Shown: piece by piece, positions 56,647-64,000 of the stretch | Numbering within the stretch: the first letter of the stretch is position 1 | How the letters are laid out: every line of letters begins with the position of its first letter | NCBI GenBank assembly: GCA_021736985.1 | Contig: JAIPEW010000015.1 | Span: 1,764 to 65,763, forward strand | Direction of reading: 5' to 3' | Length of the DNA stretch: 64,000 nucleotides | Origin: Clostridiales bacterium | Lineage (GTDB): Bacteria; Bacillota; Desulfotomaculia; Desulfotomaculales; VENG01 | Translations under genes and position numbers: made by a program | Notes under the pieces: generated by a model | Seen by the model: only the letters and a program-made list of their open reading frames with translations | The model's database searches: none | Told to the model about the DNA's origin: nothing

Positions 56647-57795
56647 ATGAAAATTATTGTTGCCGGAGGAGACGGCTTCTGCGGTTGGCCAACTTCTCTC
56701 TATCTTTCAGAACAGGGACATGAAGTATATATCATTGACAACCTTAAACGCAGGGATTGGGATACAGAACTTGAAAGCCAGTCAATAACTCCTATAAAAA
56801 CTCTAGAAGATAGAGTAAACTGCTGGGAAGAAACTACCGGCAAAAAAATTAAGATGTACATAGGAGACCTGCAGGATTATGACTTTTTATCTTCTGTATT
56901 TAAAGAAGTTCATCCTGATGCCTTTGTACATTTCGCAGAACAACGTGCTGCGCCATATTCCATGATAGACAGAGAACATGCTGTCTTTACCCAGGTAAAC
57001 AACGTAATAGGTACTTTAAATGTACTTTATGCCATGAGGGAATACACACCTGAATGTCACATGATAAAACTGGGTACAATGGGAGAGTACGGAACTCCAA
57101 ATATAGATATTGAAGAAGGGTACATAACTATAGAACACAAGGGTAGAAAAGACACTCTTCCATTTCCAAAACAACCAGGCTCTTTTTACCATCTATCCAA
57201 GGTTCACGACAGCAACAATATCATGTTTGCCTGCCGCGTATGGGGACTTAAAGCCACCGATTTAAACCAGGGAGTTGTTTACGGAGTACAAACTCATCAA
57301 ACCCGCAAAGATCCTCGCCTGGTAAATCGTTTTGACTTTGATGGCGTATTTGGAACTGCCCTGAACCGTTTCTGTGTACAGGCCGCTACAGGATCAGATA
57401 TAACCGTATACGGTCAGGGAGGACAAACCAGAGGATTCATTGACATAGAAGACACCATCAGGTGTATAGAGCTTGCCGCTCTTAACCCGCCCGAATCCGG
57501 TGATTTCCGGGTATTTAACCAATTCACAGAAGAGTTTTCGGTTCAAGATCTAGCAGAAAAAGTTTACAAGATTACTGATAACATGAATCTTAACCCTAAT
57601 ATTGTACATCTAGAAAACCCGCGGGTTGAAAAAGAAGTACATTATTACAATGCAATTCACACGCAATTAATGGATCTAGGACTGAAACCTCACTATCTTA
57701 CCGATGCCCGTTTAGAAGAACTGGTTAAACATGTACAGGAAAACAAAGACCGGGTATTGTATGATAAAATACTGCCAACCATTAAGTGGCGCTAA
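56647..57795 (+). CDS. sqdB: UDP-sulfoquinovose synthase (SQD1/SqdB family SDR)
   Basis: Long colinear blocks recalled from plant SQD1: GGDGFCGW, EQRAAPYSMID, NNVIGTLNVL, KLGTMGEYGTPNIDIEEGYITI, FYHLSKVHDS, ATDLNQGVVYG. Confidence 0.88.
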   Translation: MKIIVAGGDGFCGWPTSLYLSEQGHEVYIIDNLKRRDWDTELESQSITPIKTLEDRVNCWEETTGKKIKMYIGDLQDYDFLSSVFKEVHPDAFVHFAEQRAAPYSMIDREHAVFTQVNNVIGTLNVLYAMREYTPECHMIKLGTMGEYGTPNIDIEEGYITIEHKGRKDTLPFPKQPGSFYHLSKVHDSNNIMFACRVWGLKATDLNQGVVYGVQTHQTRKDPRLVNRFDFDGVFGTALNRFCVQAATGSDITVYGQGGQTRGFIDIEDTIRCIELAALNPPESGDFRVFNQFTEEFSVQDLAEKVYKITDNMNLNPNIVHLENPRVEKEVHYYNAIHTQLMDLGLKPHYLTDARLEELVKHVQENKDRVLYDKILPTIKWR

Positions 57796-57819
57796 AAACT
57801 ATACAGGCTGGAGATAACT

Positions 57820-58950
57820 ATGCGTATTGCAATATTTACAGAAACTTTTTTGCCAATGACCGATGGGATTGTAACCAGGCTTACGGCCAGTATAAATCAA
57901 CTTCTTGAACTCGGCGAAGAAGTAATGATACTGGCACCAGGTAAAGAAGAAGGAGAATATAAGGGAGCACCGGTAATACGTGTGCCTGGAATACCACTTA
58001 TAGTATATCCTGAAAAACAATTCACTTTTCCTCATCCTGTTATCTCGAAAGCACTTAAAGAATTCCAGCCAGATATTATTCATTCTGTAAACCCGGTAAA
58101 CCTGGGAGCATACGGCGTTTATTACGCAAAAAAACACAATTTACCGCTTATAGGCTCTTACCATACAAATACAATAGATTACTTGAACTATTACAAGCTA
58201 AGTTTCTTAAAACCCATGGGGTGGAAATATATACGCTGGCTGCATAACCAGTCCCTGTTTAATTTATGTACATCTAAAAAAACACAACAAGAATTAAAAA
58301 AACAAGGCATAAACAGAGTATATTACTGGGAAAAGGGCGTCGATACTGAAAAATTCAGCCCCCGGTATGCTTCACATGAAATGCGCTACAAGTTAAGCGG
58401 AGGACAACCGGAAAAAACCCTGTTTATATCCGTAGGACGTTTAGGATATGAAAAAGAACTGGAAAAATTGCGACCTGCCCTGGACTACATTCCTAACAGC
58501 TGCCTTGCCCTGGTTGGTGACGGCCCGGCACGTAAATACCTGGAAGAGGTGTTTCAAGGAACTAATACTGTATTTACAGGTTTCCTGTATGGAGAAGAAT
58601 TAGCAGCAGCTTATGCATCCTCAGATGTATTCGTACTTCCTTCTACTACTGAAACGCTAGGATTAGTTCTTCTCGAAGCTATGGCCTGTGGGATACCGGC
58701 CATAGCTGTTAATAACGGGCCGCCTGCAGAAATAGTAAAGGATGAAGTATCAGGCTCAGTCTTTTCTGAAACAGGTGAACCAGGTATTGTCCAGGTAATG
58801 TCGCACCTTGCAGAAGATAAAGATTTGAGACAAAACCTGGGTGAAAATGCACTAAAAATCTGTAAAAAAGAATTTGGATGGCGCAAACCAACTCTTCAAT
58901 TACTTGATTATTATTACCAGGCTAAAAGAGAATGGCAGGGACAGTGTTAG
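57820..58950 (+). CDS. sqdX: GT4 glycosyltransferase, SqdX/SQD2-like (sulfoquinovosyl-diacylglycerol synthase candidate)
   Basis: N-terminus MRIAIFTETFLPMTDGIVTRL resembles cyanobacterial SqdX. GT4 E.....E motif (TETLGLVLLEAMACG). Lies 24 nt downstream of sqdB. Confidence 0.75.
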   Translation: MRIAIFTETFLPMTDGIVTRLTASINQLLELGEEVMILAPGKEEGEYKGAPVIRVPGIPLIVYPEKQFTFPHPVISKALKEFQPDIIHSVNPVNLGAYGVYYAKKHNLPLIGSYHTNTIDYLNYYKLSFLKPMGWKYIRWLHNQSLFNLCTSKKTQQELKKQGINRVYYWEKGVDTEKFSPRYASHEMRYKLSGGQPEKTLFISVGRLGYEKELEKLRPALDYIPNSCLALVGDGPARKYLEEVFQGTNTVFTGFLYGEELAAAYASSDVFVLPSTTETLGLVLLEAMACGIPAIAVNNGPPAEIVKDEVSGSVFSETGEPGIVQVMSHLAEDKDLRQNLGENALKICKKEFGWRKPTLQLLDYYYQAKREWQGQC

Positions 58951-61793: not shown

Positions 61794-61836
61794 AATTTCC
61801 ACCTCGTAAATAGTAACATTTTTAAAAAGTTTTTAC

Positions 61837-61889
61837 AGGTGAGGGTAATACTTGCATTATTTATGCAACCGCTTCCCCTCACCTTTTTT
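61837..61889 (+). other. nested hairpin with T-tract on the plus strand, between aroF and pheA
   Basis: AGGTGAGGG...(inner TTGCAT/ATGCAA)...CCCTCACCT followed by TTTTTT. The U-tract follows the stem only in plus-sense RNA. Confidence 0.5.
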
Positions 61890-61927
61890 CATGCTATAAT
61901 ATTGTTTCTCGTATATAACAGTATTTT

Positions 61928-62956
61928 CTATACAACAGCTGGAGATAATTTGCCATTGATAACCCTGGACAGTTCTTCAATCTTACCAGCAAGAGTATAC
62001 ATTTCTTCGGGATACAAAGACTGGGGCCCGTCACTCAAGGCCTCCATGGGCTCCGGATGCATTTCTATTATCAAGCCGTCTGCCCCGGCTGCAATTGCAG
62101 CCATGGACATGGGGGAAACTAATTCCCGTTTTCCCGTACCATGGCTGGGATCTACTATCACAGGCAAGTGGCTCAACTCTTTTACCAGGGGAACAGCACT
62201 TAAATCAAGGGTATTGCGCGTATATTTTTCAAAACTCCTTATTCCACGTTCGCACAGCACAACATCAGGGTTACCCTCCGATAATATATATTCAGCTGAC
62301 ATAAGCCATTCTTCTACTGTAGCTGAAAGGCCCCTTTTTAAAAGAACTGGTTTGCCGCACCGGCCTACAGCTTTTAGCAGCTTAAAATTCTGCATATTCC
62401 TGGTTCCTATTTGCAGCATATCTACATAATTTAAAGCAATTTCCAGGCTGTGCTCATCCATTACTTCTGTCACTGCAGCCAGCCCGTTTTGTTCAGCTGC
62501 TTCTGCCATGTACTCCAGTCCTTTTTCTTCAAGTCCCTGGAAACTGTACGGTGATGTTCTCGGCTTGTAAGCTCCTCCCCTTAAAATACTTGCACCTGCA
62601 CCTGCAGCATGATATGCTGCAGCCTGAATTTGTTCCCTGCTCTCAACAGCACACGGGCCTGCAATTAACACTGGTTCACTTTCACCAAAAACGCTGCCTT
62701 TAACGTCAATACATGTATTACTCTCATGAACTTCCCTGCTGACCAGCTTGAATGGCTTCATGATAGAAATTACTTCCTTAACCCCGGGTAAAGTCTCCAG
62801 GTTCAAAACTTTAAGTGATTTTCTGTCTCCTACGGCACCAATAACAATTCTTTTAACACCTTTAATCAAGTAAGATTGAAAACCAAAACCAGTTAATTTA
62901 TCTTTTACAGCATTAACTTCTGCTTCACCTGCATTTACATCCATAACAATAACCAT
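61928..62956 (-). CDS. aroF: 3-deoxy-7-phosphoheptulonate (DAHP) synthase, type I-beta with N-terminal regulatory domain
   Basis: Core motifs GPCAVES, LRGGA.KPRTSPY, KRG and DPSH. ATG at 62956 follows GAAGGAGG. The longer track ORF reads through the T-box terminator. Confidence 0.9.
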   Translation of the reverse strand: MVIVMDVNAGEAEVNAVKDKLTGFGFQSYLIKGVKRIVIGAVGDRKSLKVLNLETLPGVKEVISIMKPFKLVSREVHESNTCIDVKGSVFGESEPVLIAGPCAVESREQIQAAAYHAAGAGASILRGGAYKPRTSPYSFQGLEEKGLEYMAEAAEQNGLAAVTEVMDEHSLEIALNYVDMLQIGTRNMQNFKLLKAVGRCGKPVLLKRGLSATVEEWLMSAEYILSEGNPDVVLCERGIRSFEKYTRNTLDLSAVPLVKELSHLPVIVDPSHGTGKRELVSPMSMAAIAAGADGLIIEMHPEPMEALSDGPQSLYPEEMYTLAGKIEELSRVINGKLSPAVV

Positions 62957-62988
62957 GCAAATTCCTCCTTCAATTTTTAAATATAAAT

Positions 62989-63398
62989 AAAAAAAACCGC
63001 TGCTCGCCCCCATGAGGACGAAAGCAGCGGCTTCCGCGGTACCACCTCGCTTGGTCATAAAGACCCACTAAGCAGGTACGGGAATAAATAATTCTCTAAT
63101 AAAATAAAAAAATTTTTCGCCTTAGGGACGAAAAATTTCGCGTTACCACCCTAGTTGGCATATATAAATGCCCACTTCTCTGGTAAGGTACGGGAACATT
63201 GATTACTCCGATACCCCTTTCCTTTTAACGGTGGAAATTTCCGTCACGGCCTACTTAATGATCGTGTTCAGCCGTGCAGTTCAGGAGAGAACTTCAGCAA
63301 GTCGTGTATTAGGAGTGCTCTCAGTCCACGACACTCTTTCCCTGTAAAACTGGGGCCTACCTACTTTTCTCCATCATCACCAGTACTTATTAAATTTT
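62989..63398 (-). promoter_or_regulatory. T-box leader with two successive T-box/terminator modules
   Basis: Reverse strand shows Stem I elements, T-box core AACTAGGGTGGTAACGCG (63156-63139) with a terminator, and a second core AAGCGAGGTGGTACCGCGG (63052-63034) with a terminator CCGCTGCT..AGCAGCGG + T8. Confidence 0.85.
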
Positions 63399-63402
63399 AT
63401 AT

Positions 63403-63432
63403 ATATTAGCATGAAACAACCTTACCCGTCAA
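63403..63432 (-). promoter_or_regulatory. putative sigma-A promoter of the T-box-aroF-pheA unit
   Basis: Reverse strand reads TTGACG-18 nt-TAATAT. Confidence 0.55.
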
Positions 63433-63448
63433 CGTAATTATTATTAAT

Positions 63449-64000
63449 TTAATTTAAAATTAAATTTGGTAAAAAAGTAGCAATCGACGGAAAAGATATT
63501 AAAATAATTAAGCAGATAACTAAAGATAATAAAAATGGCCATATACCCTTAAAAATTAATTCCAGGGGAATTTCCGGGGCAACCCCCTTAATAATATACA
63601 CGTTCATTCCTACTGGTGGAGTAATTACTCCCATGGCTACTACAATAACTATTATTACACCGAACCATACAGGATTATAACCGAGGATATCTACTACGAC
63701 GGGATAAAATACAGGTATAGTAAGTAGAATCAGTGCCAGGGCATCAATGAAACACCCAAGCAGTAAATAAATACCCAGTATTACTGCTATTACAGCAAAA
63801 GACGGCAGGGGTAAAGCACCGGTCCATTCCGCGAAAGCAGTAGGGATGCCGCTGATTGCCATGAAGCGGCCAAAAACAGATGCCCCGGCTACCAGCAGCA
63901 TAATCATGGCCGCAGTCCGGGTAGTATCATAAAGGGATTTTTTAAACCCATCCCAGCTTAAGCGTTTTTCTAAAAGAGCCACACCAAGAATACCTGCTGC
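63449..64000 (-). CDS. TRAP transporter large permease (DctM family), C-terminal part; gene starts beyond the window end
   Basis: Hydrophobic C-terminal ~180 aa with a DctM-like pattern. The frame stays open to the window edge. Confidence 0.8.
   Translation of the reverse strand, partial: AAGILGVALLEKRLSWDGFKKSLYDTTRTAAMIMLLVAGASVFGRFMAISGIPTAFAEWTGALPLPSFAVIAVILGIYLLLGCFIDALALILLTIPVFYPVVVDILGYNPVWFGVIIVIVVAMGVITPPVGMNVYIIKGVAPEIPLELIFKGIWPFLLSLVICLIILISFPSIATFLPNLILN

Follow-up and report, generated by a model that had tools for sequence, protein, structure and literature searches.

A partially tandem T-box upstream of aroF-pheA, in which a complete unit is followed by a discriminator and terminator lacking Stem I

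The 64-kb window analysed here (the whole stretch of 64,000 nucleotides (nt) from contig JAIPEW010000015.1 of a Clostridiales bacterium, assembly GCA_021736985.1) carries on its minus strand an RNA leader followed by the genes aroF and pheA. T-boxes are textbook RNA elements that sense which tRNA is bound and whether it is charged, and this leader has a complete T-box with its own terminator (unit 1), followed by a second discriminator and terminator without Stem I (unit 2). An earlier reading made from the letters of the DNA (hereafter the sequence-only reading) had named both downstream genes, which are matched by the protein families NF006421 (aroF) and NF008865 (pheA), and all sequence elements quoted by it are found on the minus strand. 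A single T-box leader would thus govern both the phenylalanine (Phe) branch and the first committed step of the common pathway. The features of the locus, all on the minus strand (-), are the following:

63403-63432, -, promoter-like site TTGACG-18-(TG)TAATAT with a TG extension; consensus match only
63121-63386, -, unit 1, complete Phe T-box with Stem I, Stem II, IIA/B pseudoknot, linker hairpin, Stem III and antiterminator; covariance model RF00230
63279-63378, -, Stem I of unit 1, with kink-turn (K-turn) GAUGA, specifier loop AAAAGUA / GAAGUUCU, AGGGA box and distal loop GGACUGAGAGC; covariance-model alignment
63289-63291, -, specifier codon UUC (Phe) in the register GAA-G-UUC-U; RF00230 codon columns
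63216-63277, -, Stem II (63277-63245) and Stem IIA/B with the F-box CCGUUA (63244-63216); covariance-model alignment
63185-63215, -, linker hairpin of unit 1, with 5' strand GGUAUCGGA (63215-63207), 3' strand UUCCCGUACCU (copy 1, 63196-63186) and a C.C mismatch
63157-63172, -, Stem III of unit 1, GGCAU-UUAUAU-AUGCC, with the purine string AGAGAAGUG 5' of the stem; covariance-model alignment
63139-63152, -, T-box core 1 AGGGUGGUAACGCG (63152-63139), the 3' strand being UUCGUCCCU; covariance-model alignment
63124-63152, -, antiterminator 1, with helix A1 AGGG/CCCU, bulge UGGUAAC and helix A2 GCGAA/UUCGU; -6.2 kcal/mol
63106-63139, -, terminator 1, an AU-rich stem of 13 base pairs (63139-63109) followed by U7; terminator scan
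63085-63105, -, spacer of 21 nt, AU-rich and unconserved (11-47 nt in relatives)
63074-63084, -, copy 2 of UUCCCGUACCU, the start of unit 2, with no local 5' partner in the window
63053-63072, -, purine string (C)UUAGUG and Stem III of unit 2, GGUC-UUUAU-GACC (63065-63053), then AA
63031-63048, -, T-box core 2 GAGGUGGUACCGCGGAAG (63048-63031)
63014-63048, -, antiterminator 2, with helix A1 GAGG/CCUC, bulge UGGUACC and helix A2 GCGGAAG/CUUUCGU with a basal G.U pair; -12.0 kcal/mol
62989-63030, -, terminator 2, CCGCUGCU..CGUCCUC-AUGG-GGGGCG-AGCAGCGG (63030-62997) followed by U8 (62996-62989)
61928-62968, -, ribosome-binding site GGAGG (62968-62964) and aroF, 3-deoxy-D-arabino-heptulosonate 7-phosphate (DAHP) synthase with an N-terminal FXD domain, starting at ATG 62956; NF006421, 486.8 bits
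60663-61793, -, pheA, prephenate dehydratase with an ACT domain and a C-terminal chorismate mutase; NF008865, 277.8 bits, the mutase match covering residues 290-369

Unit 1 aligns with RF00230 over the full length of the model (positions 1-219 of 219), scoring 117.8 bits (E-value 1.3e-26) for a gathering score of 93 bits. Having all the standard parts, it is an ordinary member of the canonical transcriptional T-boxes represented by RF00230 and by tyrS and glyQS of Bacillus subtilis. The K-turn, the specifier loop with a codon matching the pathway and the distal platform of Stem I are all aligned, and the IIB pairing can be read between GGAAA and the loop UUUCC. Compared to a canonical single T-box, the leader has in addition the linker hairpin GGUAUCGGA/UCCCGUACC between IIA/B and Stem III, a U instead of a purine 3' of the specifier, and a second discriminator with its terminator after unit 1. 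The segment TTCCCGTACCTTACCAGAGAAGTGGG, previously taken for Stem III, is in fact the 3' strand of the linker hairpin together with the purine string. Regarding the promoter-like site TTGACG-18-TAATAT, it is present as had been described, just beyond the 62989-63398 segment, being the sole sigma-70-like match when 62900-63500 was scanned.

The specifier had been regarded as ambiguous between UUC and a register giving GUU. In the RF00230 alignment, GAA-G-UUC-U of unit 1 is placed on the consensus columns GAA-a-uuc-a. Meanwhile, a single T-box located 5' of an aroF homologue (locus L026) reads GAA-A-UAC-A, with a tyrosine (Tyr) codon and the canonical purine in the same 8-nt layout, and this identical spacing fixes the specifier register of unit 1. 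The loop sequence GAAGUUCU is unchanged in 14/14 leaders of the family described below, 12 of these being 5' of aroF-pheA. Phe T-boxes overwhelmingly use a UUC specifier, UUU accounting for only ~1% in Bacillales (PMC7778990). Due to the covariance-model register, the UAC analogue, the invariant loop, the production of phenylalanine by the operon and the UUC usage of Phe T-boxes, the ambiguity is largely resolved in favor of Phe (UUC), while GUU (Val) is disfavored by the register, the UAC analogue and the operon content.

After terminator 1, the second unit begins without any decoding element. When unit 2 was searched alone against RF00230, only a 5'-truncated match was obtained (model positions 108-219, 28.5 bits, E-value 4e-5), below the gathering score, in which the confident alignment begins at AGUGG/Stem III and nothing matches Stem I; in the relative L207, unit 2 gives a local match at positions 153-216 with 38.9 bits. 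Thus, as seen by the covariance-model search and the 21-nt spacer, unit 2 has no Stem I, specifier, Stem II or IIA/B of its own. This is the arrangement claimed by the sequence-only reading, a complete T-box and then a unit with neither Stem I nor specifier loop, and the RF00230 run that it had proposed returns one full hit, the second unit emerging only as a truncated match in the separate search. Its gap of 55 nt between both units needs correction, as this value is counted from the first T-box core, and 21 nt separate the U tract of terminator 1 from the second copy of the repeated 11-mer.

It can be asked if a compact or unconventional Stem I with a specifier is hidden in the spacer, resembling the ultrashort Stem I of actinobacterial T-boxes. 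T-boxes with a very short Stem I do exist; however, the U tract of terminator 1 is followed by copy 2 after just 21 nt (11-47 in relatives), the spacer is AU-rich, unconserved and unstructured in the window, and the upstream columns of the truncated covariance-model alignment are matched at low posterior probability only, making this explanation extremely improbable. The compact but complete Stem I that had been envisaged for this spacer was looked for with the covariance model, and none was found. In addition, neither structure nor a promoter-like site was seen in the spacer of the window (63085-63105), and two other candidates were rejected: leader-peptide attenuation, as the spacer is too short when read from the sequence, and an internal promoter, as the scan of 62900-63500 shows no promoter-like site there.

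The discriminator is defined structurally as the RRRxG-Stem III-AA motif combined with the helices A1 and A2 and the bulge (PMC7583486). All of these are present in unit 2: the motif reads UAGUG-GGUC..GACC-AA in the window, with GAGUG as the family consensus; the 7-nt bulge carries UGGN at its 5' edge and adjoins helix A1 (GAGG-UGGUACC-GCG); and the basal G.U wobble of helix A2, which is part of the steric sieve, is found as G.U in 10/10 aligned sequences (columns 64-85). Judged from its sequence, unit 2 is a complete discriminator plus terminator without decoding domains. Both bulges carry UGGU and therefore match the same discriminator base (A73). The suggestion that unit 2 senses only the acceptor end of a tRNA, perhaps of one docked upstream, agrees with this retention of a full discriminator.

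The strong terminator followed by T8 that had been noticed before aroF is located at 63030-62997, with its U8 at 62996-62989. Its hairpin has -22.4 kcal/mol, compared to -7.5 kcal/mol for the weak terminator 1 of the window, and among the eight relatives where the terminator 2 hairpin was captured in full, it is stronger than terminator 1 in six. Terminator 2 is mutually exclusive with antiterminator 2, since the strand CUUUCGUCCUC is shared with A1/A2, and for the fold of the whole unit 2 the terminator form reaches -45.4 kcal/mol versus -16.3 kcal/mol for the antiterminator form. Because the terminator form is far more stable, the default state of unit 2 is predicted to be OFF.

Regarding the distribution of this layout, scanning genomes with AroF gave a single close relative that shares the arrangement, L001, a Clostridiales metagenome-assembled genome (MAG) with an AroF 70% identical, while more distant aroF loci mostly have no T-box, and L067 and L026 carry single T-boxes. 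A protein database then provided AroF homologues with 62-73% identity, 13 of which were examined on their contigs. The family set comprises 14 lineages with AroF 62-100% identical, the leaders forming alignment A1 and unit 2 of 10 lineages forming alignment A2. The one-and-a-half layout is located 5' of aroF in 14/14 lineages, always in the order of a complete Phe T-box, terminator 1, a spacer 11-47 nt long with no conservation, a discriminator lacking Stem I and a second OFF hairpin, which is a terminator in 13/14 lineages, the exception being L215. Three named species, Desulfotomaculum nigrificans, Desulfofundulus salinus and Pelotomaculum terephthalicicum, belong to the set, and with these two NCBI families (Desulfotomaculaceae and Peptococcaceae) are represented by cultured members.

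Both units keep their own signatures across these lineages, as the bulge of unit 1 is UGGUAAC in 12/14, with helix A2 GCGGAAAGC...GCUUCUCGU, and the bulge of unit 2 is UGGUACC in 14/14, with helix A2 GCGGAAG...CUUUCGU, so that the A2 helices of the two units differ consistently. Over the antiterminator segment (A1-bulge-A2; 38 alignment columns), the mean identity between genomes is 0.83 for unit 1 against unit 1 and 0.82 for unit 2 against unit 2, compared to 0.65 for unit 1 against unit 2, both in the same genome and in different genomes. Because identity is 0.82-0.83 within units and 0.65 between them regardless of the genome, the values would fit one old duplication before the split of the lineages, with no gene conversion and with purifying selection on both copies. 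A recent duplication or gene conversion behind the identical 11-mers is ruled out by the unit 1-unit 2 identity, which is 0.65 within genomes as between them.

The antiterminator-state structure of unit 2 (Stem III, A1 and A2) has been maintained in the 10 aligned lineages, 97.2% of the cells being paired and seven pairs having changed on both sides; none of the main measures is equalled by any shuffle (0/500), and slid controls drop to 45-66% paired. Compensatory changes are present in five of the seven pairs of Stem III, helix A1 alternates between GAGG/CCUC and GGGG/CCCC, and helix A2, including its basal G.U, is unchanged. These results bear on the possibility that unit 2 is a decaying partial duplicate, acting as a constitutive second terminator or attenuator without tRNA input. 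Such a reading could find support in the score of unit 2 alone, below the Rfam gathering value (28.5 versus 93 bits), and in the much higher stability of its terminator form (-45.4 versus -16.3 kcal/mol). However, no change is seen in the bulge or the A2 strands of the 10 aligned lineages, UGGUACC being kept in 14/14, the pairing of A1 and Stem III is kept by compensatory changes, unit 2 is conserved like unit 1 across genomes (0.82 versus 0.83), and a constitutive strong terminator directly 5' of essential biosynthetic genes would silence those genes, for which reasons decay is considered very improbable. Thus, the constitutive second terminator offered by the sequence-only reading does not agree with a T-box bulge kept in all 14 lineages or with the covariation of A1 and Stem III in the 10 aligned, and, besides, the orthologues show the opposite of the disrupted antiterminator pairing that it associated with a decaying duplication.

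The exception, L215, is the aroF leader of D. nigrificans (1090-1203), where the discriminator of unit 2 is kept without a U-tract terminator. There, the 3' strand of helix A1 (UCCCUUGUAGAUUU...) pairs with AAAUUUACGGAGGGA, which contains the Shine-Dalgarno sequence, in a fold of -20.3 kcal/mol, and the second checkpoint seems to have switched to control of translation in place of transcription. That the switch was re-wired and the discriminator was still kept argues that the discriminator is in use.

Outside this family, a metagenome scan with the unit 2 pattern GAGGTGGTACCGCGGAAG-N4-16-TTTCGTCCTC retrieved 120 unrelated single T-boxes and no orthologues, and in none of these 120 was there a second core or CCGTAC 5' of the core. 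Two weak downstream 'cores' among them are not tandem units, that of L176 being inside a coding sequence and that of L150 being a two-mismatch match that was not inspected. Because these T-boxes have no second core nearby, the tandem layout is rare among T-boxes with the same core and specific to the aroF leader family, with no general tendency. As for its recognition, the best full-length RF00230 alignment of L205, L210, L212, L213 and L217 passes from Stem I to the second discriminator, the first being handled as an insertion, and therefore automated annotation gives a single over-long T-box (~390-425 nt) in which the partial tandem is hidden.

Considering the observed architecture, its conservation, the maintained fold and the relative stabilities of the hairpins, the leader is read here, with a probability of roughly 0.55, as a partially tandem ('one-and-a-half') Phe T-box in which two successive attenuation checkpoints control aroF-pheA. 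By homology, Stem I of unit 1 would decode tRNA-Phe through the UUC specifier and the distal platform, and discriminator 1 would test the 3' end of this tRNA, an uncharged end favoring antiterminator 1, so that the polymerase may pass the weak terminator 1. Read-through at unit 2 would then need a second uncharged NCCA end, stabilizing antiterminator 2 against the much stronger terminator. We infer that this end most likely belongs to the tRNA-Phe held by the single upstream Stem I/II platform of the same transcript, which would be the most economical source because unit 2 has no means of decoding and rapid capture by Stem I is a requirement of transcriptional T-boxes. The tRNA 3' end would be released when, behind the polymerase, antiterminator 1 gives way to terminator hairpin 1. 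In this way, two positive readings ~100-150 nt apart would be needed, and, since two serial readings multiply, a lower leak and a steeper, sharper response to phenylalanine starvation can be expected.

Several points weigh against these two checkpoints fed by one tRNA. Stem I has been called 'obligate' for T-boxes (PMC7583486), and transcriptional T-boxes need fast tRNA capture, so a discriminator without Stem I may be too weak or too slow a binder unless the tRNA is delivered in cis. The full complex of the glyQ T-box with its tRNA has been reported as ultrastable, with a half-life of ~1 h, and the tRNA might stay locked on antiterminator 1, its 3' end not being freed in time for unit 2. In addition, there is no tRNA gene within the 64-kb window, and as tRNA-Phe is encoded outside it, the match to A73 and to a GAA anticodon is assumed. 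Finally, the base 3' of UUC (63288) is U in 14/14 leaders (C in L067), where a conserved purine is expected; this U could pair with the A after the GGAG stem, on the 5' side of the specifier loop.

The tRNA end tested by unit 2 could also come from solution. Being independent of unit 1, unit 2 would then capture any free uncharged tRNA matching UGGU (A73), as a general sensor lacking a specifier, and two conditions would have to coincide for the operon, tRNA-Phe starvation (read by unit 1) and a generally high pool of uncharged tRNA (read by unit 2). The absence of a decoding element in unit 2 accords with this proposal, as does the description of the isolated discriminator as sufficient for sensing aminoacylation, and the spacer, unconserved and of 11-47 nt, argues against a fixed geometry between the units. 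However, without the anticodon and elbow contacts of Stem I, a low affinity and a low on-rate are expected for a switch under kinetic control. Moreover, unit 2 opens with the UUCCCGUAC strand, the same one that links discriminator 1 to the platform, and a general sensor would give no reason for it being so strictly conserved. It is therefore regarded as unlikely relative to the delivery of tRNA-Phe in cis.

This conserved strand is related to the linker hairpin, which takes the form GGUAUCGGA(A)/(U)UCCCGUACC between the IIA/B pseudoknot and Stem III. Both of its strands are near-invariant in the 14 lineages, with a conserved C.C (or C.U) mismatch in the middle of the helix, and the hairpin has no counterpart in the RF00230 consensus, appearing in the alignment as an insertion of 38 nt. 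The Tyr T-box of L026 has a related version of it. Two copies of the 11-mer TTCCCGTACCT, and no more, are present in the 64-kb window (63196-63186 and 63084-63074), for ~0.03 occurrences expected by chance, so the identical repeat pointed out by the sequence-only reading is real. Unit 2 starts with a copy of the 3' strand only, and this copy 2 is conserved in 14/14 lineages, the window itself being counted here among the 14. In the spacer of the window there is no local 5' partner for it, the duplex of -1.0 kcal/mol being equalled by 103/200 shuffles, and such a partner is equally missing in L212, L215, L217 and L218. A local partner beating the shuffles is found in four lineages (L204, L205, L207 and L210), and a universal local hairpin for copy 2 is ruled out, as no more than these 4/14 have one.

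The complementarity of copy 2 with the 5' strand of unit 1 matches that of copy 1, at -12.0 versus -11.9 kcal/mol in the window. When the alignment is scored, the 5' strand with copy 2 has 88.3% of the cells paired, with five pairs changed on both sides and 2/500 shuffles as good; the 5' strand with copy 1 has 87.2%, with four such pairs and 1/500 shuffles as good. These values raise a special case of delivery in cis, in which the single 5' strand GGGUAUCGGAAU exchanges copy 1 of UUCCCGUACC for copy 2. Discriminator 2 would take the place of discriminator 1 on the platform of Stem I, Stem II, IIA/B and tRNA, discriminator 1 looping out as terminator hairpin 1. In line with such an exchange, copy 2 is kept in every lineage, though five of them have no local partner for it; in 12/14 leaders, it outranks every other downstream 15-mer as partner of the 5' strand; and changes in the 5' strand are matched by copy 2 alone in L215 (GGACU/AGUCC) and L216 (GGAAA/UUUCC). 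However, the complementarity is inherited from the duplication, the shuffle test is permissive, as related sequences can beat shuffles without any structure, and the covariation of the 5' strand with copy 2 has little power, because the core is nearly invariant. Helix-end changes are left uncompensated in three or four lineages (L001/L209, L210 and L213), a good local 5' partner exists for copy 2 in L204, L205, L207 and L210, and the exchange costs loop entropy, with no driver in the sequence alone. The displacement of copy 1 by copy 2 is thus held to be doubtful. If true, the charge of one tethered tRNA-Phe would be checked twice in succession under a single specifier, and to our knowledge such a co-transcriptional relay has not been described for any riboswitch.

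The layout itself is already known, and the leader is a partially tandem T-box. Vitreschak, Mironov, Lyubetsky and Gelfand (RNA 2008;14:717) are reported to have described a structural T-box class 'containing duplicated terminator-antiterminator elements'. The tandem T-boxes found in the trp operons of several Firmicutes and in thrZ of B. subtilis are fully tandem, and likewise place serial attenuators sensing the same tRNA in one leader; however, every unit there carries a Stem I with a specifier and is able to recruit a tRNA by itself, and unit 2 here has neither Stem I nor specifier. The leaders studied here are not fully tandem, because each of them gives a single full RF00230 hit. Partially tandem T-boxes share the same plan, one specifier-bearing Stem I and then two antiterminator/terminator modules, and nothing essential differs here; in 14/14 lineages no gene or promoter lies between the modules, the second module of L215 being an apparent Shine-Dalgarno sequestrator. 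Since 'partially tandem T-boxes' are mentioned in a 2020 review (PMC7583486), the view that the known tandem T-boxes all repeat complete units does not hold. For 'double T-boxes', serial attenuation has been proposed to give a sharper, multiplicative response (PMC9413887). Regarding the translational T-boxes with ultrashort Stem I of actinobacterial ileS, the decoding module is also reduced with the discriminator constant, but they keep a specifier in the apical loop and Stem II, whereas unit 2 has none of these and uses a terminator in the window.

To this known layout, the present analysis adds an aroF-pheA family spanning 14 lineages, with evidence consistent with one old duplication and with both copies being under selection, the delimitation of the duplicated piece as a complete structural discriminator plus the 3' strand of the linker hairpin, and the Shine-Dalgarno variant of D. 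nigrificans. In the current model Stem I is obligatory for tRNA capture, and the mode of action of partially tandem T-boxes is an open question of the field. The aroF-pheA family is a clean, conserved test case, having defined module boundaries, distinct signatures for each unit, three named species and a natural, apparently translational variant. It could show whether a discriminator works without a decoding domain of its own, whether a single bound tRNA is tested two times, and in what way the dose response of an amino acid pathway depends on serial attenuators.

Concerning the genes of the operon, AroF carries the N-terminal ferredoxin-like domain PF18152, and the domain order of PheA, prephenate dehydratase-ACT-chorismate mutase, is the reverse of that of the Escherichia coli P-protein. 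The start of pheA is likely ATG 61793, not the GTG 61802 of the open reading frame list. The gap between both genes (61794-61927, minus strand) has ~130 nt, compared to ~10-25 nt or overlapping genes in relatives, and contains a stable hairpin, AGGUGAGGG...CCCUCACCU (61883-61837; z = -3.3 for the region), followed by GUAAAAACUUUUU, which may serve as an internal attenuator, as a terminator or in RNA stability. In P. terephthalicicum (L217, 2217-3417), the place of pheA after aroF is taken by tRNA-Leu(GAG) and a phage-type integrase, which points to a rearrangement or an integration site.

Elsewhere in the window, the only other Rfam match at gathering level is a cobalamin riboswitch (RF00174, 39472-39655, minus strand, 114.5 bits). 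On the plus strand, at 56647-58950, a homologue of UDP-sulfoquinovose synthase (NF041015, 497.5 bits, with the model cut-off of 575 not reached) adjoins a glycosyltransferase of family 4 (GT4), which suggests the synthesis of sulfoquinovosyl glycolipids in a Clostridia-type MAG.

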